Below are positions 132 to 19,998 of a DNA stretch of 20,000 bases, in pieces. The stretch lies in the IMG/VR virus record IMGVR_UViG_3300005827_000008; one strand, written 5' to 3'. The notes beneath the pieces were generated by a model. It saw only the letters and a program-made list of their open reading frames with translations. It was not told the DNA's origin and ran no database searches. Numbering within the stretch: position 1 is the stretch's first letter; every line of letters begins with the position of its first letter. The position numbers were made by a program, and so were the translations under genes. This DNA is from an uncultured virus (IMG/VR IMGVR_UViG_3300005827_000008). Its lineage: Duplodnaviria > Heunggongvirae > Uroviricota > Caudoviricetes.

Positions 132-494
132 ATGAAAAAGTGGCACATAGTCTTCTCATCCATATCTGAAACAGGCGACATTTATTGCTCCAAAAGAAAG
201 CAGTTTGCTGTATTGGAGGGCAAATTTAGCAATGAATCAGAAGCCATTTCAGAGGCGTGTGGAAAGACTTACATTAACCCTAATTACCTATCAGCCATAA
301 AAGGCAGGTATTCTTACTGTAAGGGAAAGCCTTTTGGAATCATTGAAGGTTCCGCAACAAAGTTTGATTTACTTTACAACGGAAAGGTTATAAAGGAAAA
401 TCAGAAAGCAGACTTTTTAAACAGCCACAAGCAGAGCCTTATTTCCACTGGGTTCTACAATAAAAATAAATTCTCATTCTCCCCACGGGGGTAA
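132..494 (+). CDS. hypothetical phage protein
   Basis: 120-aa ORF in a tightly packed + strand operon; no recognised motif. Confidence 0.7.
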   Translation: MKKWHIVFSSISETGDIYCSKRKQFAVLEGKFSNESEAISEACGKTYINPNYLSAIKGRYSYCKGKPFGIIEGSATKFDLLYNGKVIKENQKADFLNSHKQSLISTGFYNKNKFSFSPRG

Positions 495-510
495 ACCTTT
501 AAAAAAAAAC

Positions 511-831
511 ATGAAAGAAATAAGAATGGATTACTCTGAGTACGAAGAAATGGTAAAAACCATACAAACTCAGCAAGATGCTATTGAGGAATTTAAGAAA
601 GCCTCCAATGTTGTCTTGGTTGATAACAGGCATAGCACCGTACCCGACATTAGGTGGTTTAGCGGGCGCATACCGGTGGTTGTTTCGGATGGCGAACTGG
701 CAAAGTCAATGATGAAAGACGAATTTGACCGATTATTCGCGGAGGCAAAAAATATTGAAGTGAAAGCGTTTCGCCAACAGGTACCCGACCCTGCGCCTAT
801 CTTTAATACTAGGAAGTGGTGGCATCTTTAA
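511..831 (+). CDS. hypothetical phage protein
   Basis: 106-aa ORF preceded by a poly-A leader typical of Bacteroidota; N-terminus looks coiled-coil. Confidence 0.75.
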   Translation: MKEIRMDYSEYEEMVKTIQTQQDAIEEFKKASNVVLVDNRHSTVPDIRWFSGRIPVVVSDGELAKSMMKDEFDRLFAEAKNIEVKAFRQQVPDPAPIFNTRKWWHL

Positions 832-842
832 ATTTATACATC

Positions 843-1244
843 ATGACACGCATACGCAAATACCAGGGAGTTTGTTTGAAAACCGGAAACCTGATACAAG
901 GCACCAGTTTACTCGTTTATGACGAAGAATCTGGATTAGCCAAACCCGGAGAAAACGTCTTTATCATGGACGGATACGGACATACATTCAATATTATACC
1001 CGATTCAGCAGGGGACTTTACAGGCGAACAAGACATAAACGGGCAAGACCTTTATGAGCATGATACGTTTAGAAGTGTATTAAGAGATTGGGTTGTGATT
1101 TTTGACCAAGGTTGCTTTTGTGCGGCACCGATTGTGGACGGAGTTGTTGATATGCGGCAGGGGACTATCACCCTTACCGCAATACGATCTGTGTTTGGCA
1201 AAGTTAAAACAGGAAACATTTATATTAAACAGCTATCAAAATGA
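843..1244 (+). CDS. YopX-like phage protein (divergent)
   Basis: GDFTGEQDINGQDLYEHD and C-terminal GNIY match the YopX pattern (QyTGlkDkNGkeIYEGD...GNIy). ATG at 843 preferred over the GTG at 816, which overlaps the previous gene. Confidence 0.65.
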   Translation: MTRIRKYQGVCLKTGNLIQGTSLLVYDEESGLAKPGENVFIMDGYGHTFNIIPDSAGDFTGEQDINGQDLYEHDTFRSVLRDWVVIFDQGCFCAAPIVDGVVDMRQGTITLTAIRSVFGKVKTGNIYIKQLSK

Positions 1245-1666
1245 GCAACGGAGAAACAGAAGGAATAAAGCCCACTTATATCATGGGGATTGACACCGCA
1301 AGCAAAGATAAGGCGTATTGCCTAGCCAGATGGTACAATGGGAACCATGAAATCATCTTTACCAAAACAACGAAAGACCAATCTTTGTTTAAAAGAGAGA
1401 TTGACAGTCTGTGCAGTATCTTTAACGCACAATTGGTGCATGAGGTGAGTAGCGAAGACATTAAAAAAAATAGTCACAAAAAATACCCACTAACTCCAAG
1501 CGAATCCTTTTCACCAGAAGAAACAATAAAAGCAGCTTTGGATAAAATCAGCGAACTGCAAAAGCAACATACAATAATGTTAAACGCCATCCGTGACCAT
1601 AAGGCAGTATCGGATTCGTCATTTTTTGAACTTAGGCTGCCTGACGAGATTAAGCAAATTTTATAG
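1241..1666 (+). CDS. hypothetical protein; N-terminal YIMGIDTA resembles the first strand of an RNase H-like fold
   Basis: ATGA overlap with the upstream gene. Only one RNase H/RuvC-like motif is visible, so no function is assigned. Confidence 0.65.
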   Translation: MSNGETEGIKPTYIMGIDTASKDKAYCLARWYNGNHEIIFTKTTKDQSLFKREIDSLCSIFNAQLVHEVSSEDIKKNSHKKYPLTPSESFSPEETIKAALDKISELQKQHTIMLNAIRDHKAVSDSSFFELRLPDEIKQIL

Positions 1667-1668
1667 CC

Positions 1669-1896
1669 ATGAGATTAGATACAGACAGGCAAAAAGAACA
1701 GGAGCCAAAGCGCATAGAATACGCTGTTTCCCGACTTGCTCAGATTGGCATAGAGATAGATTATGAGGACGACAAAAAGATTAAGTTCACTCATAAGGGG
1801 CATGAAGTCACCTTGTACCCATATTCCGGCTGGTTTACTGGTAAATCAGTAATGGACGGGAGGGGAGTCGAAAACCTTATTAAACAACTTTTATAA
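1669..1896 (+). CDS. hypothetical phage protein
   Basis: 75-aa ORF starting 2 nt after the previous stop; contains a YPYSGWFTGK...DGRG motif. Confidence 0.75.
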   Translation: MRLDTDRQKEQEPKRIEYAVSRLAQIGIEIDYEDDKKIKFTHKGHEVTLYPYSGWFTGKSVMDGRGVENLIKQLL

Positions 1897-1904
1897 ATTA
1901 CAAT

Positions 1905-2147
1905 ATGACAAAAGAAAAAATTTACCCCAAAGGCATTATGACCTTTGCGCCTCACGCAAAAGCCCCGGCATCCGTGTTGGCCTCAATCATTATTTCACCA
2001 AGTACTTTAGCGGAATGGCTGGAAGAAAACCCCGACTGCCTTACTCACAGCGAAAAGTACGGTACGCAACTTAAACTTGTTGTTAAAAAGAACAATGAGA
2101 ACAAGGTTTACTGTGAAGTGGACACCTATAAATCTGGAAGCAATTAA
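1905..2147 (+). CDS. putative small single-stranded DNA-binding protein
   Basis: 80 aa, beta-rich, ending in YCEVDTYK, directly upstream of the exonuclease and RecT. Function is inferred from context and recalled similarity to small Bacteroidota-phage SSB-like proteins. Confidence 0.45.
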   Translation: MTKEKIYPKGIMTFAPHAKAPASVLASIIISPSTLAEWLEENPDCLTHSEKYGTQLKLVVKKNNENKVYCEVDTYKSGSN

Positions 2148-2159
2148 TCTACAACCAAT

Positions 2160-2969
2160 ATGACAACCCCGTTTAAGGTCACTCAGTCCGCAATGAAAGA
2201 TTTTCTTTCGTACACAAATGGCAATATGTGTGGGCTTCAATATGTAGCAAAATACTTTGACGGAATGGAGTTTCCAGCTTCCGACCCAATGAAACTTGGA
2301 CAGTACTTTGAATACATGGCAACCGGGGCTAAAACTAAATTTGGGCATACGCCTGTTGCTGAAAAAACACAAGCAGGGAAATTGACCGCCAATTACCAGA
2401 GGGCAGAAAAGCAGGTTGAGAACTTTAAGCGAATGATGGATTTTTACGGGTTTAAAATCGAACACGTAGCAAAGCGGATACAGCACGATAATTCGACTGG
2501 CGACTTTGATACAGTTGTCTTGCTGACAAAAGATATTGCACTTGCTGATACTGTATTGCCAGAGGGATCAAGGTGTATTATTGACTTAAAATATAGCGGA
2601 CTTCTTTACGACAAGTGGAATGAAATGGGATGGGATGCCGAAAGATTACCTGAGAAAGAAAACATAATGACTCAATCCGTGCATTACACATGGTTAGGGC
2701 TAAAGGTTTTTAATGAACATATGCCCTTCTTTTTTGCCGTATTTTCGTCTACCAACGAAACCGATCATGAATTGTTCCATATCAATATTGACGAGGAAAG
2801 AATACATAAGCATGAGGGTTTTGTTAAAACAGCATACACCATAATACAGAATGAATACAAAAAGGGATTTAAGCCACACGCCCATTATAAAAGATGCGGG
2901 GAGTGCCCGTTAATGCCAAACTGCAAATACGCCATATCAGTACCTCAAATAAAAACTATTAATTATTAA
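2160..2969 (+). CDS. PD-(D/E)XK exonuclease, Cas4/AddB-like, with probable Fe-S cluster
   Basis: Motifs GDFD, IIDLKYSG and QSVHY; one N-terminal Cys (NMCG) plus C-terminal CGECPLMPNC; adjacent to RecT. Confidence 0.8.
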   Translation: MTTPFKVTQSAMKDFLSYTNGNMCGLQYVAKYFDGMEFPASDPMKLGQYFEYMATGAKTKFGHTPVAEKTQAGKLTANYQRAEKQVENFKRMMDFYGFKIEHVAKRIQHDNSTGDFDTVVLLTKDIALADTVLPEGSRCIIDLKYSGLLYDKWNEMGWDAERLPEKENIMTQSVHYTWLGLKVFNEHMPFFFAVFSSTNETDHELFHINIDEERIHKHEGFVKTAYTIIQNEYKKGFKPHAHYKRCGECPLMPNCKYAISVPQIKTINY

Positions 2970-2973
2970 TTAT

Positions 2974-3894
2974 ATGACAACCCCAGCAGAAACAAAAAAA
3001 CAACTTGCCCCGTGGAAACAGCAGCTTCTCATCGCAGAGCAAAAGTGCCTAGCAATAACCAATCCCGAAAGAGTTAAAATAGAACTTGGCTTTGCAGCGC
3101 AACTTCTACAAAACTCCGCAGACTTGCAAAAATGCACCCCAGAAAGTATTCAGAACGCAGTAATAAATGTTGCACGAACTGGCGTTACCCTTAACCCTAT
3201 TATGAAATTTGCTCACCTTGTTAACCGGGGGGGTAAATGCACACTGGATATTGATTACAAGGGTTTGATTAAGATAATGATTGACAATGAATGTTGTAAA
3301 AACATTATTGCAATCATTGTGTATGACGATGAAGAATTTGAAGAAAGCGAAAGCCCAATCCAACCACACGCCCACAAAAGAAAGCATGTTGACACGGAAG
3401 AAGAACAGGCAAAACGCAAGATAATCGGGGTTTACAGCCGTGTGCTAATGATGGATAACACCGTTATGTACACTGAGTTTATGCCTTACTGGCACGTATT
3501 GAAAGTTGAAAAGTCAAGCCCTGCCGCAAGGTCACAGTATTCACCGTGGAAGTCATGGAGAGAAAGCATGATTAAGAAAACTAAGATTCGCTATGACTTT
3601 AAGTTCCTGCCGCCCCGCAACACGTCAAATGAAATTTCTGCAATTATTGAACTGGAAGATCAGAATAACGGAGCCGCAAAGCCTATTCAAAGCGGGAAAA
3701 GAGGGTTGGCCGATGTATTTAATATTGATGAGGCAAGTTTTGAGGAAATAAGCGATATAACAACCGAAGATCAATTAAGGGAATTGCTTTCAACTAAAAA
3801 CACCCCAGAAGAAGTTGAGGAACTGCAAAAGCAAATAGGGGCAAACTTTCCAAAAGAAATATTTACCGACCGCATAGACCAACTTAAAAAGTAG
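2974..3894 (+). CDS. recT: RecT-family single-strand annealing recombinase
   Basis: LQKCTPESIQNAVINVARTGVTLNP, IDYKGLI and SPWKSWRESMIKKT are typical RecT motifs; paired with the exonuclease. Confidence 0.88.
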   Translation: MTTPAETKKQLAPWKQQLLIAEQKCLAITNPERVKIELGFAAQLLQNSADLQKCTPESIQNAVINVARTGVTLNPIMKFAHLVNRGGKCTLDIDYKGLIKIMIDNECCKNIIAIIVYDDEEFEESESPIQPHAHKRKHVDTEEEQAKRKIIGVYSRVLMMDNTVMYTEFMPYWHVLKVEKSSPAARSQYSPWKSWRESMIKKTKIRYDFKFLPPRNTSNEISAIIELEDQNNGAAKPIQSGKRGLADVFNIDEASFEEISDITTEDQLRELLSTKNTPEEVEELQKQIGANFPKEIFTDRIDQLKK

Positions 3895-3896
3895 GG

Positions 3897-3968
3897 GTGT
3901 GCCGCAGATTTGCAGCAGAATTATTAAGCATCAATATCCCAGACCCAGAAGAACAATTAGCAATATAA
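3897..3968 (+). pseudogene. probable orphan 3' fragment of a NinB/DUF1367-like gene
   Basis: Reads (V)CRRFAAELLSINIPDPEEQLAI*, like the C-terminus of phage NinB-like proteins. An in-frame TAA at 3885-3887 lies upstream, so the N-terminal part is missing. Confidence 0.4.
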
Positions 3969-3971
3969 AGC

Positions 3972-4148
3972 ATGAAAATAACAGTAAAAACCACCATGAT
4001 AGAACTGGCCGTGGAAGACCATGTAGTTCTTGGCACGGATAATTACCCGGCCAGAAGTTTAGCCCCCACTATTGAAGCAGTTCAGGGGGTAATAACAGAA
4101 GCTATCCGGCTTCATAATGAAGTAGCAAAGGGGTATGAAGTAAAGTAA
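3972..4148 (+). CDS. small hypothetical protein (58 aa; not in the ORF track)
   Basis: MKITVKTTMIELAVEDHVVLG...AKGYEVK*; its TAA (4146-4148) is the TAA of the attC-like core TAAC. Confidence 0.7.
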   Translation: MKITVKTTMIELAVEDHVVLGTDNYPARSLAPTIEAVQGVITEAIRLHNEVAKGYEVK

Positions 4149-4275
4149 CGACCGAGTATTGCCGAAGTTGGGGAATTGGCAGTACCGAAGTTGATTTAAA
4201 AACAAATGATAACAAATTATTCAAAAGCCCATCAAAGTACGTCAAGCCCCAATTTTGGCAATACTTATGTTAGGC
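4143..4275 (-). repeat. attC-like recombination site (site A)
   Basis: TAAC 4146-4149 ... GTTAGGC 4269-4275 encloses arms AGTATTGCCGAAGTTGGGG (4155-4173) and CCCCAATTTTGGCAATACT (4247-4265): 17/19 Watson-Crick pairs plus 2 G-T on the + strand, with asymmetric spacers. Confidence 0.75.
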
Positions 4276-4603
4276 ACGGTACGGTAAAATTATGGAATAC
4301 GCTGATGTAATTTCTCTTGGGTGGAAAGATAGAAACCCTGAAAGTAAAAATGAAAATACAAAGACATTTATTTATGAATCCGAAGGTTTTGATTACCACA
4401 TAATGAGTGTCGGATTTGGTTGTGGTGATGATACAGCTTTTGACTTGATAATGATAAACTGTGTGCCTCAAGAAACTGTGTCAAATATTTGGGAAAATTC
4501 CGAAACCCATTTTTACGGTGAAATGAAAACAAAACAAGAGTTAGATATAACAATGCAACTTGTCGGGGTTACTCAATATAGAGGGTTGTAGTATTGTGCC
4601 TAA
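4149..4603 (-). mobile_element. integron-type gene cassette A (attC-like site plus one gene)
   Basis: The gene is bracketed by GTTAGGCACGGTAC (4269-4282) and GTATTGTGCCTAAC (4591-4604), a 12/14 inverted match, as expected for an integrated circular cassette. Confidence 0.7.
4292..4591 (+). CDS. hypothetical protein (cargo of cassette A)
   Basis: 99-aa ORF that fills the space between the two core sites almost exactly. Confidence 0.75.
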   Translation: MEYADVISLGWKDRNPESKNENTKTFIYESEGFDYHIMSVGFGCGDDTAFDLIMINCVPQETVSNIWENSETHFYGEMKTKQELDITMQLVGVTQYRGL

Positions 4604-4704
4604 CATAAAATATGTACCGCACCTCATGTAATTCAATTAAACACAGACAGTTGATATGAACGTTTCTGAACACGTGCAGTTTTTCATTCAGGAAATGAAA
4701 CGCC

Positions 4705-5205
4705 TTACCGCCCCTGCTTATTAGCCGCAATCATTTCCTTAATCTGGTCAAGAGAAAGTAGGCTGTATTCGGCCTTTAACTTTTCAAACAGTTCAAGATA
4801 CTTGGCATAACCAGGGTACTCATGTAGCTTTTCTTTGGCCGCTAGAGTACCTTGATCTATTGTGTTGTGTACCCACGTTTGCAGTAAAACAATGTTTTTA
4901 GGGTTTAACAGCCATGCTTTGTGGTTCTTTTTATTCAGCACATGAGCGCAATTTGACGGGGATGGATTCCTGATGGCAGTACCCGTAATAAAGCAAATGT
5001 GGGGGCGTTCAGCTATTATCTTATCGAAGACAGCCTTTTCCCCTGTCACGGTTCTTTTTTTGCTTATGGCCGTCCTAACAAGCTCTTTTACCAGTTTCCT
5101 TGTGTCAGACCTTTCCCCTTTCACCGGAATCCGGCACTTTGCGCATAATCCATCTTTTAAAGTGGACAGGCGGTTGCAGGTTGAGCAGTAGCCGGGTTTA
5201 TTCAT
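4705..5205 (-). CDS. HNH-like endonuclease (NinG/Ref-like) with N-terminal Zn ribbon
   Basis: CSTC...CAKC ribbon, then CFITG...NCAHVL...NIVLL...HNTID, a degenerate HNH pattern. Confidence 0.6.
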   Translation of the reverse strand: MNKPGYCSTCNRLSTLKDGLCAKCRIPVKGERSDTRKLVKELVRTAISKKRTVTGEKAVFDKIIAERPHICFITGTAIRNPSPSNCAHVLNKKNHKAWLLNPKNIVLLQTWVHNTIDQGTLAAKEKLHEYPGYAKYLELFEKLKAEYSLLSLDQIKEMIAANKQGR

Positions 5206-5700
5206 TTAGATTCCTTTCATAAAAGCCATCCAGATTGTTTTTGCCTGTCTTCCGGTGGTGTGTCCAAAAAGTGGTTTATAGGGTATAATATCCAGAACTT
5301 GGCTAGAAGTTATTTCGCTTTCGTTCCACTTAAAAATAAGCGTTCCATTTGGCTTTAGTACTCTAAAACATTCGGAAAATCCCTTTTGTAGCATAAACTG
5401 CCAATCTTCGGGCAGTCTGCCGTATTTTTTAGCCATCCAACTGTTTTGTCCCAATGTTTTAAGGTGTGGCGGGTCAAATACTACCATTGCAAAACTTTCA
5501 TCTTCAAATGGCATTTCCGTAAAATCAGCCACTAAATCAGGCTTTACTTCAATAGTCCTTATTCCGGTTTTGCAACTGCTGTCTTTTGCCTCAACTGTTT
5601 CTCTTCGTTTGTCAATAAACAGCACATTCGGGTTTTCTTTGTCAAACCAAAACATTTTACTCCCGCAACAAGCATCTAAAATAAGTTTTTCGTTATTCAT
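5206..5700 (-). CDS. class I SAM-dependent methyltransferase, probably an amino (N6-A/N4-C) DNA MTase
   Basis: Motif I ILDACCGSKMFW, catalytic VVFDPPH, and RVLKPNGTLIFKW; a compact phage MTase type. Confidence 0.85.
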   Translation of the reverse strand: MNNEKLILDACCGSKMFWFDKENPNVLFIDKRRETVEAKDSSCKTGIRTIEVKPDLVADFTEMPFEDESFAMVVFDPPHLKTLGQNSWMAKKYGRLPEDWQFMLQKGFSECFRVLKPNGTLIFKWNESEITSSQVLDIIPYKPLFGHTTGRQAKTIWMAFMKGI

Positions 5701-11674: not shown

Positions 11675-11714
11675 ATGCTATCTACCTAACAAGCGTTAGG
11701 CACACCCGCAAAGA

Positions 11715-16400: not shown

Positions 16401-16606
16401 TTGTTAGAGTTGCTTAACTTCTCTTTAACTCTCATTAGCCTGTCGTAGTAGGGTTTAAAAACTTTGTTACCTGATCTTGCTTTTAAGAGTATAATGTGTG
16501 ACTTTATAAAGTGTGGTAAATTTAATATTGTTTCGTACTCTGAAAGTATGAGTTTTTGCGGGAGGGATTGGTCGTTAAACCAGAGTTCAAGCTGTTGCAG
16601 GGTCAA
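16397..16606 (-). CDS. small conserved Bacteroidota protein (DUF6965-like, recalled)
   Basis: MTLQQLELWF...LP...ETILNLPHFIKSHI...PYYDRL pattern; family name from memory. Confidence 0.6.
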   Translation of the reverse strand: MTLQQLELWFNDQSLPQKLILSEYETILNLPHFIKSHIILLKARSGNKVFKPYYDRLMRVKEKLSNSNK

Positions 16607-17376
16607 AATTCTCTTTCATTTTGCATCCTAACCAAACATTCGTGTGGGGTTTCGCCTGTTTTTATGCGGTAACTGCACCCAATTGTACCGCCCTTCCACG
16701 AACCTTTTCTTTCGCCAACTTCTTTATCAAATTCAACGGCTATGGTTCTGTGCGTTTTGGCAAATAGCCCCGTCCACTTAAACCACAATGGTCGCCATTC
16801 TCTTTCTTCTACCCCGATTGTTGCGTTTACAATAGTGTTGTCGTATTTGTCAAGGTATTCATGCGTTCCAGTCCATTTGTTTTCATTTAGCCAGTCACGG
16901 CTACCAACAGTGTCTTTGTCTTTGCTCCAATCAACCCGATTAGATTCTGTTTCATGGAACCAGTCATAGCCCCGCTTCATAAGGGTAGATGTTCGTACCC
17001 AAGTCATGTGCCAAGGCAGTGTAATCGCTTTCCATTTTCTGCCGCCTTCAAAATTCCCGGCACCCCCTATGTAAATCCAGATTTTATTGTCATGGAAGTT
17101 TATTCCCCATGCGGCACTGTCGCAATCTTGTATTCCTGTTTTTATGGGTAGGTGAATGTATATTTTCCCATATCCGAATAATAATAAGGGAATGGTGAGC
17201 AAAAACCAGGGGGACTGCGCCACGGCAAAGGGCAACATAATAAGCGCAATAATCTGAGTGATACTTGTGTTCACTTGCGGCCTTTCGTCAAAATATCCGG
17301 CTTTTTCTACATAGAATCCGGCTCTAAATTCAGGGTAAAAGCGTACCCATGTCATGTCTTCTGTTTTATAAGTCAT
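16603..17376 (-). CDS. hypothetical membrane-anchored, Trp-rich protein
   Basis: 257 aa with a hydrophobic stretch IIALIMLPFAVAQSPWFLLTIPLLLFGY. Confidence 0.75.
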   Translation of the reverse strand: MTYKTEDMTWVRFYPEFRAGFYVEKAGYFDERPQVNTSITQIIALIMLPFAVAQSPWFLLTIPLLLFGYGKIYIHLPIKTGIQDCDSAAWGINFHDNKIWIYIGGAGNFEGGRKWKAITLPWHMTWVRTSTLMKRGYDWFHETESNRVDWSKDKDTVGSRDWLNENKWTGTHEYLDKYDNTIVNATIGVEEREWRPLWFKWTGLFAKTHRTIAVEFDKEVGERKGSWKGGTIGCSYRIKTGETPHECLVRMQNEREF

Positions 17377-18915: not shown

Positions 18916-18985
18916 TTTTCTTTTGCGGATTATTCGTCAATGTCTCCAAGCATTGTTATACCAGTTAGTTATACATATACGCAAG

Positions 18986-19366
18986 TTATGCGTTATTGTA
19001 AAGAGGCACATCGTAACCTTTAGCTATTAAGTATTTAATTGTTTCAAAACAGACACGATTTCTTTGTTTCGGGTCTTGTTCTTTATTTTTTTCATAATCT
19101 TTTGAATAGTGCCAGTGAAAGTCTTTCCACTTGAAAAAGAACACATAATCAGCAGATTTCATATTGTCAGAAACTCTGTAAGAAGTATAATCTAAAACAA
19201 GTGTGTCGCTAAACATTTTATTGTCAAAATCTGTAATTACAGGCTCGTTCCAAATCTTTTCTCCATTGTGCATTATCACTGGACAACATCCTTCAATAAT
19301 CACTATTTGCAGTAAATCTTCTGCGGTCATTTCTTTTAGCGGTTTATTACCAATTTCTATTATCAT
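18986..19366 (-). CDS. hypothetical protein (cargo of cassette B)
   Basis: ATG at 19366 (MIIEIGNK); the stop TAA is the TAA of the core site. The ORF-track GTG at 19405 lies inside the attC-like site. Confidence 0.75.
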   Translation of the reverse strand: MIIEIGNKPLKEMTAEDLLQIVIIEGCCPVIMHNGEKIWNEPVITDFDNKMFSDTLVLDYTSYRVSDNMKSADYVFFFKWKDFHWHYSKDYEKNKEQDPKQRNRVCFETIKYLIAKGYDVPLYNNA

Positions 19367-19519
19367 AATTTTGAATTTGCGAAGAACAACAACGCATAAC
19401 AGCACCTACCCAAAAGCGGGGTTTCAGTGGTATTATGTGGTTTTGTGCTTCTATTTAAGTTCATTGTAAATTGACAGTTTTGTGTTCCAAATTCCCCGCC
19501 TTCGGGTAGCTGCAACACG
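18986..19519 (+). mobile_element. integron-type gene cassette B
   Basis: G|TTATGCGTTATTGT (18985-18999) versus ACAACAACGCATAAC (19386-19400), a 14/15 inverted match around the gene, followed by an attC-like hairpin. Confidence 0.75.
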
Positions 19520-19525
19520 TTATGT
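19394..19525 (+). repeat. attC-like recombination site (site B)
   Basis: GCATAAC ... GTTATGT with arms GCACCTACCCAAAAGCGGGG (19402-19421) and CCCCGCCTTCGGGTAGCTGC (19494-19513); two of the three mismatches become G-T on the - strand. Confidence 0.8.
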
Positions 19526-19935
19526 GCAAGGCTACTGACCGTCTTCGATAGAAAGTTTAGACAATATAGTATCTGCTGTTTTAATCGCTACTTCTGCAAC
19601 AATTTCACTTTGCATTAAATACTTTTCGCCTTTGTATTCTTTCATCCATTCTGGATTAGAAAGTAGTCCTTGCATTGCGTTTGCTATAAAATATTCCCTT
19701 TTAGTAAGTCCAGCCGAATATGCTTTAACTGCTGCTACTGTTTGTCCTGTTTCTAAGGTCCTATTCACTTTGAAAGGGAATATTGATTTGTCTGCGTTTT
19801 TCATTTGTATATTTATTTAAGTGATTACTAATTTAACCGTGCCTATCTGCTAACATTGGCTAAACAAAAGCGGCATAGCGCACTGCCAAAAGTTACCACA
19901 AAAGTTTGTTGCCGCTTTTGTTTAGCCAAATACCG
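19520..19935 (+). mobile_element. integron-type gene cassette C
   Basis: Begins at G|TTATGTG, carries one gene and ends in attC-like site C; end-to-end core match is only 9/14. Confidence 0.6.
19532..19804 (-). CDS. conserved hypothetical phage protein (cargo of cassette C)
   Basis: GLTKREYFIANAMQGLLSN...AIKTADTILSKL matches the common phage GmTlRdYFAa.AMqg...AD.ml family. Confidence 0.8.
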   Translation of the reverse strand: MKNADKSIFPFKVNRTLETGQTVAAVKAYSAGLTKREYFIANAMQGLLSNPEWMKEYKGEKYLMQSEIVAEVAIKTADTILSKLSIEDGQ

Positions 19936-19941
19936 TTACTT
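19848..19941 (+). repeat. attC-like recombination site (site C)
   Basis: TGCTAAC ... GTTACTT enclosing a perfect 20-bp inverted repeat, TTGGCTAAACAAAAGCGGCA (19856-19875) / TGCCGCTTTTGTTTAGCCAA (19910-19929). Confidence 0.7.
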
Positions 19942-19998
19942 CCTTTTTAATTTTACCACATACTCTTTATTCTCAATACTTATCCCAACACACACTAC
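19936..19998 (-). CDS. 3' end of a gene running in from the right edge
   Basis: Open frame VVCVGISIENKEYVVKLKRK*; its TAA coincides with the core of site C. Confidence 0.5.
   Translation of the reverse strand, partial: VVCVGISIENKEYVVKLKRK

Follow-up and report, generated by a model that had tools for sequence, protein, structure and literature searches.

We found that positions 4149–4603 of a 20,000-nt stretch of DNA from an uncultured phage (hereafter the window) form a discrete mobile unit, cassette A, and we give these borders with high confidence. We propose that cassette A is an integron-like mobile phage cassette made of a hairpin and the gene that follows it. Taken with its full mechanism, which includes a Xer-like recombinase acting in trans, this proposal is moderately probable.

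The window is phage-like and encodes a RecT annealing protein (2974–3894), a DNA methyltransferase, a YopX protein and DUF5675 and DUF6965 proteins. A blastn search of positions 2900–5300 against phages returned no catalogued phage resembling it. Nine tightly packed ORFs on the + strand occupy positions 132–4148, and a 58-aa ORF is the last of them. The gene after cassette A (4705–5205) lies on the opposite strand; therefore, cassette A is located between two convergent gene blocks. Elsewhere in the window, we observed a homologue of the Acb3-type CBASS inhibitor (16603–17376, - strand; PF25187, E 4e-35), an anti-defence gene. A DNA methyltransferase gene lies outside any cassette (5206–5700, - strand), and its 54%-identical relative in contig L053 is located just downstream of a cassette site.

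Judged by their sequences, the 58-aa ORF and the 99-aa ORF in cassette A are both real genes. The 58-aa ORF has a relative (P0013) that is 55% identical and contains an equal number of residues after the conserved KGY. A sequence-only reading of this DNA had taken the TAA that closes the 58-aa ORF to be the TAA of the core TAAC, and its coordinates proved exact; the hairpin, the 99-aa gene and the closing inverse core were also all present where that reading had placed them (Table 1).

Table 1. Positions of the parts of cassette A and of the two further sites in the window.
Feature	Positions	Strand	Basis or remark
Whole cassette A, 455 nt	4149–4603	+	L001 comparison and family-wide core test; register ambiguous within the shared TAAC
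58-aa ORF, last resident gene of the RecT block	3972–4148	+	Stop TAA 4146–4148 inside the left core
Left core TAAC, flank/cassette hybrid	4146–4149	+	L001 homology starts here; TAAC kept at this position in the family
Spacer GACCG, 5 nt, unpaired, long side of the asymmetric spacer	4150–4154	+	Between core and stem
Stem 5' arm AGTATTGCCGAAGTTGGGG, 19 nt	4155–4173	+	Inverted-repeat search, fold, covariation
Loop, 73 nt, A+T-rich	4174–4246	+	Family-conserved loop length, ~18.5-nt repeats
Stem 3' arm CCCCAATTTTGGCAATACT, 19 nt	4247–4265	+	Inverted-repeat search, fold, covariation
Inner core GTTAGGCAC	4269–4277	+	Fits GTTRRRY; pairs with the cassette's own end
99-aa cargo gene, stop TAG	4292–4591	+	11 relatives
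Cassette-end motif GTAGTATTGTGCCTAAC	4588–4604	+	TAG is the cargo stop; contains the inverse core GTGCCTAAC
Inverse core GTGCCTAAC	4596–4604	+	Closes cassette A
Site C2	19391–19528	-	Upstream of gene 19368–18986; cassette ends at ACGCATAAC (18992–18984)
Site C3, short class, 20-bp perfect stem	19846–19942	-	Upstream of gene 19804–19532

From its left border, cassette A reads C, a 5-nt spacer, the hairpin, GTTAGGCAC, the gene and GTGCCTAA|C, and a 3-nt spacer (TAT) separates the 3' arm from the inner core. As had been claimed, circularization of the unit regenerates paired cores: joining 4603 to 4149 gives GTGCCTAAC...GTTAGGCAC with a 9-bp closing stem. Deletion of 4149–4603 gives the junction ...AAGTAA|CATAAAATATG, which retains the stop codon and leaves the 58-aa ORF unchanged. 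This junction and the equal C-terminal length of the relative support the earlier view that the insertion was non-disruptive. We infer that the crossover point is TAA|C. On the + strand, the stem is 89% Watson–Crick and fully paired counting two G·T wobbles; its fold reached -18.5 kcal/mol, and 3 of 200 shuffles were as good. The exact 9-mer GTTAGGCAC occurs three times in the window, and a strict scan of the window for TAAC, spacer, stem and GTT returned only three sites, i.e., those of cassette A, C2 and C3. The 9-mer count, the fold and the strict scan all exceed chance expectation; the 7-mer alone was not enriched in the window (four found versus 1.99 expected).

Two further sequences in the window resemble parts of the cassette. 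CCTAAC-AAGC-GTTAGGCAC, whose 9-mer is that of the inner core of cassette A, directly follows a terminator-like hairpin at 11682–11703, and this mini-palindrome could be a collapsed site or chance. Ahead of the 58-aa ORF we also considered a decayed site; no scan supported this site or the mini-palindrome. The end of the RecT gene (3890–3905) reads GTAGGGGTGTGCC, similar to the cassette-end motif GTAGTATTGTGCC(TAAC), and may be a relic or chance.

The borders of the unit were fixed by a copy at another locus. The 99-aa cargo protein has 11 relatives with 51–93% identity, and DNA was retrievable for two loci, L001 and L002. In L001, a metagenome contig of 3995 nt, we found the same hairpin followed by the cargo gene, whose protein is 95% identical; the sequence-only reading had suggested a search for this combination at other loci or in other phages. 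Pairwise alignment of L001 with the window showed ~94% similarity from TAAC to GTGCCTAAC, and both flanks were unrelated; the homology starts and ends inside TAAC, and the exact nucleotide is ambiguous within it. The unit lies inside an array in L001: the inner core GTTAGCGGC of the upstream cassette is matched by GCCGCTAAC right before cassette A, and downstream the contig stops at the start of another family-type hairpin. The cargo homologue of L002 (63% identity) is located in an ordinary operon without a site. The refuting condition set by the sequence-only reading, that homologues of the 99-aa gene never carry the hairpin and cores, thus gave a mixed outcome that does not refute it: L001 has them and L002 does not. 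The cargo protein itself gave no match in Pfam and PHROG searches or in tblastn against phages; its AF2 model (pLDDT 73.6) matched no PDB fold at E ≤ 0.001, and in a protein atlas it matched only unnamed viral clusters.

An empty allele, which had been proposed as a check, was not found in phages, viral contigs, genome contigs or sequencing runs. These searches comprised blastn of window positions 2900–5300 against phages, searches of viral contigs with RecT and the 58-aa ORF, and an alignment search of genome contigs with the 58-aa ORF. Five candidate 58-aa/RecT loci in viral contigs matched only 11 residues and were rejected, as tblastn did not confirm them. The exact hairpin arm, used as a route to close relatives, had no match in viral contigs. 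In sequencing run X1, of which a small share matched, contigs carry the L001 variant and break at 4146 and 4604, and none has a joint across cassette A. Run X1 is not independent of L001; therefore, it provides no evidence on excision. A separate contig of this run matches 4583–4617, across the right junction of cassette A, with three differences. No circular form of cassette A was seen in the searches and run X1.

We next considered the hairpins as a family. IMG/VR was scanned with the pattern CCGAAGNNGGGG-N60-90-CCCCNNTTTTGG, which was derived from the window's own sites; the stem motif CCGAAGnnGGGG...CCCCnnTTTTGG is common to sites A and C2. The pattern matched at least 125 IMG/VR stretches, with 110 distinct sites among the matches listed. 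In these listed matches, the lengths cluster at 94–101 nt, and all sites have YTAAC-G upstream and TGTTA downstream. The family members include phages of 170–360 kb, and their cassettes carry accessory genes, e.g., DNA methyltransferases. Site A shows every family feature, namely the core, the spacer asymmetry, the stem motif and a loop of ~72 nt, together with the own-end inverse core and the end motif TAGnATTGnnnnTAAC of the family.

For each site, we took the 9 nt that begin with GTT and looked for their reverse complement in the surrounding sequence. Among the matches listed, a perfect 9-nt inverse core was present 158–1259 nt downstream in 76 of 109 sites, compared with 7.5% when the core of another site was used as the control, whereas the core directly upstream of the hairpin matched perfectly in only 2 of the 109. 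For hairpin pairs that were at least 90% identical and located at different loci (matches listed), the downstream flank was kept at ≥80% in 59 of 189 pairs and the upstream flank in 0 of 189; these pairs are non-independent, and many come from few hairpin clusters. In the 76 cassettes delimited among the matches listed (median length, 491 nt), the longest ORF was co-oriented and read away from the hairpin in 74. The pairing with the own end, the travelling flank and the gene orientation therefore indicate that one unit comprises a hairpin and the gene behind it, with the cut at the 5' core. Together with the L001 copy, these results bear out the mobile cassette and the junctions that the sequence-only reading had proposed.

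Of the 76 cassettes (matches listed), 17 use the terminal TAA as their stop codon, whereas 20 have the stop codon 13 nt from the end, within a TAGnATTG...TAAC motif; cassette A belongs to the latter class. The cassette-end motif of the family is (G)TAGnATTGnnnnTAAC. We also observed that some cassette ORFs end on the terminal TAA of TAAC, and that others (L129, 2598–3440; L001, 3096–3480) begin within the loop of the hairpin and extend across the 3' arm and the inner core. Several methyltransferases are present in the arrays of contig L129 and of phage P12002L. Within the window, sites C3 and C2 form a two-cassette array at 18984–19942 on the - strand, which probably continues beyond the last position of the window; in L018, a relative with 62% identity to the C3 gene lies within an array. 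The sequence TAAC-N5-(A/T)ATATGTA follows the terminal core of cassette A (4605–4617), that of C2 (18984–18965, - strand) and that of an array next to a recombinase in L133. As a candidate attI-like motif it was rejected, being found five to six times across all loci versus three expected, i.e., not enriched.

The hairpin is conserved as a structure. In an alignment of 45 sites, 94.9% of the cells in the 20-bp stem were paired, compared with ~45% in slid controls. Compensatory changes occurred in nine stem pairs, with 169 double-change cells versus 77 in shuffles, and 0 of 500 shuffles reached that number. Ten of the 20 stem pairs are fixed by the search pattern and are therefore uninformative. 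No bulge interrupts the 19–20-bp stem at A, C2 or C3 or in the alignment of 45 sites. The extension of the inner core has no pairing partner in the five positions preceding TAAC, as expected if these are the sequence of the neighbouring cassette. The spacer is 4–6 nt on the 5' (TAAC) side and 0–3 nt on the 3' side in 42 of 42 sites.

The two strands of the site are not equivalent. The sense strand folds better at A, C2 and C3. Using a strand-symmetric detector, we counted the non-Watson–Crick stem positions in 36 sites outside the search pattern, taken from arrays, phage P12002L and the window; on the gene-sense strand, 66 were G·T and 5 were A·C. The loop length is near constant across the family (70–77 nt), with an internal period of 18–19 nt (z 15–26 at lags 18, 19 and 37), and the sites of a short class are ~37 nt shorter. 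In family loops such as that at 4174–4246, a repeat of ~18.5 nt with the rough consensus CACAAAAGTTnAATnnAAG occurs in three to four copies; the difference between long and short sites amounts to about two such units.

Hairpins of this kind might instead function in RNA, i.e., in processing, stability or attenuation, with the genes between them shuffled by short homology at the hairpin edges. Such shuffling has been proposed for the promoter stem-loops of T4-type phages. The G·T bias, being on the transcribed strand, would fit an RNA hairpin equally well; in addition, the hairpins lie upstream of co-oriented genes, and RecT-type recombination genes adjoin cassette A. However, the flanks of cassette A share only TAAC with the L001 context. 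Moreover, the five cassette-specific nucleotides beside the core pair with the own far end at the 76 of 109 sites (matches listed), which argues against homology-driven exchange because a circular intermediate predicts such pairing and homology exchange does not. The arrays also end at a tyrosine recombinase gene in six of six strong cases, and an Rfam search of the window returned no family match. We therefore regard the RNA-level explanation as improbable.

No tyrosine recombinase is encoded in the 20-kb window; therefore, the enzyme that moves cassette A would act in trans. PF00589 matched in 9 of 40 site-bearing contigs. The six strong matches are open frames of 264–298 aa, all directly after the last cassette and on the strand of the array. 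In these six contigs, the arrays contain 4–14 co-oriented sites, and the recombinase gene lies 40–60 nt beyond the TAAC that closes the array. These six contigs are the basis for assigning the enzyme, since PF00589 was found, counting any match, in only 2 of 18 near-complete records of related phages. The linked recombinase aligns end to end with the XerA/XerC-like structures 4a8e and 5hxy. Its alignment with IntI4 (2a3v) falls into two blocks, and the segment joining the blocks is ~43 residues shorter in the linked recombinase, indicating that this enzyme does not contain the IntI-specific insertion. The recombinase family is abundant and uniform in length (283–296 aa). The most likely enzyme for cassette A is thus a short Xer-like recombinase of 264–298 aa, such as those encoded after the arrays of other phages.

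The fixed tetranucleotide at the borders is also reminiscent of single-strand transposition. We considered whether cassette A is a non-autonomous IS200/IS605-type transposon (a palindrome-associated element) inserting 3' of TAAC: its insertion adjoins a fixed tetranucleotide, which also closes its other end, the hairpin is strand-specific and removal would be seamless. However, cassette A has a single hairpin at one end only, whereas palindrome-associated elements of this type have subterminal hairpins at both ends, and the two ends of cassette A are not independent because the far end is the pairing partner of the inner core. We found the Y1 transposase family PF01797 in 0 of 40 site-bearing contigs, compared with 6 of 14 control genomes in the same search, and the enzyme that is linked to the arrays is a tyrosine recombinase. 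A transposon of this type is thus very unlikely.

The proposed phage cassette shares much with integron cassettes. Each unit comprises one promoterless small gene and one imperfect hairpin site, in which the hairpin lies between inverse cores that end in AAC and start with GTT, the structure is conserved and the sequence is variable. The junction agrees with AA|C / G|TT, circularization restores a fully paired site and folding favors one of the strands. As in integrons, the units are arranged in arrays beside a tyrosine recombinase gene. Cassette A could be an ordinary integron cassette with a genuine attC, mobilized by a host IntI and caught by the phage at a secondary site, in line with the interpretation given to CALINs. 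Insertion of integron cassettes at secondary sites (non-attI, GTT targets) likewise leaves a lone cassette at a minimal core, with one hybrid and one bare-core end; in cassette A, unlike in such insertions, the core also provides the upstream gene with its stop codon. The cores of cassette A fit RYYYAAC/GTTRRRY (GCCTAAC at 4598–4604 and GTTAGGC at 4269–4275, in a site of 133 nt), the junction would also accord with G|TT when the opposite strand is read, and most complete phages with these sites encode no recombinase.

Several features of the family stand against an ordinary integron cassette. In attC stems, extrahelical bases set the strand choice, whereas the phage stem contains no extrahelical bases and its asymmetry lies in the spacers and the G·T wobbles. 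The loops differ from those of attC in being fixed in length with ~18.5-nt repeats. The family core is GTTAnnn rather than GTTRRRY, which was fitted by only 33 of 111 inner cores (matches listed). In classical integrons, the ORF lies upstream of attC and the bottom strand is recombined, whereas in the phage family the sense strand folds better and, read along the gene-sense strand, the hairpin comes before the gene; the cargo is therefore inverted relative to the classical layout, as in the 74 of 76 cassettes above (matches listed). Finally, unlike the integron integrase, the linked recombinase has no IntI insertion, and its gene lies downstream of the array in the same orientation.

Published experiments bear on this question from both sides. 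The accessible text of Qi et al. 2023 (PMC9892861) describes CALINs and predicted attC sites in phages, with IntI1 recombining five of the six sites tested, which favors an integron origin. The exception was P12002L_attC1, predicted by HattCI: according to the same text, it alone among the tested sites was not recombined by IntI1. Sites of the cassette A architecture occur in Polaribacter phage P12002L, and we located P12002L_attC1 at ~30060–30003 (- strand), where it is flanked by a methyltransferase gene on either side; its end motif is ATTGTTGCTAAC and its inner core is GTTAGGCAC, and it is the only tested site of this architecture. The array at the right end of the window resembles the phage CALINs in having no integrase in view. 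The accessible text of PMC9892861 treats the sites as integron attC and gives no account of a hairpin-first unit, a Xer-like enzyme or repeat-bearing loops. Literature searches also returned no description of these three features. Considering both sides, we find an ordinary integron cassette unlikely.

The proposed phage cassette also differs from known Xer systems, including dif modules and IMEX. The linked enzyme is closest in sequence to XerA/XerC-like proteins. Xer sites are short and double-stranded (~28 bp), whereas the family sites are folded hairpins of 85–135 nt, and we know of no cassette arrays for Xer sites.

We propose the following mechanism for cassette A. The gene-sense strand would fold, and in the circle GTGCCTAAC would pair with GTTAGGCAC at the foot of the hairpin. 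A tyrosine recombinase would cut the folded strand at TAA|C and exchange it with TAA|C in the target, and this strand exchange would probably be resolved by replication, as in integrons. The target here would have been the TAA-C that closes the 58-aa gene at the end of the RecT operon; the upstream gene would therefore keep its stop codon. Cassette A would bring a new terminal TAA-C, and its 99-aa cargo would become the last co-oriented gene of the operon. Against this proposal, the target of cassette A shows no hairpin or recognizable partner site beyond TAAC.

The sequence-only reading had also placed the cargo under the promoter of the operon. The cargo shares its strand with the gene that closes the tight + strand block, and the interval between the 58-aa gene and the cargo contains no promoter-like site on the + strand and no convincing terminator-like site. 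Expression of the cargo from the operon promoter is thus plausible and consistent with this layout.

As proposed here, the mechanism is integron-like, yet several defining features of integrons are absent. Arrays alone cannot assign a hairpin to a gene; a lone cassette with an independent copy, as described here, fixes both the unit and the crossover. The hairpin cassettes make up a large family of exchangeable phage gene units that has been little described and works like integron cassettes, seemingly with a simpler enzyme, and our results point to a widespread phage counterpart of the integron that is distinct in enzyme and site design. We suggest, tentatively, that phages, at least those of Bacteroidota, might run their own integron-analogous capture system with a Xer-like enzyme, sense-strand sites with repeat-bearing loops and hairpin-first cassettes. 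If this is true, part of phage mosaicism would be explained by site-specific recombination, a small new pair of recombinase and site would be available, and the phage "CALINs" would need re-reading; the failure of IntI1 to recombine P12002L_attC1 would then be understandable. Since a stop codon is part of the core TAA|C, any gene ending in TAA-C can receive a cassette behind it without damage, and each insertion passes on a new TAA-C; therefore, operons could grow gene by gene outside dedicated arrays. If the capture-system reading holds, cassette A would be a natural example of such stepwise operon extension.
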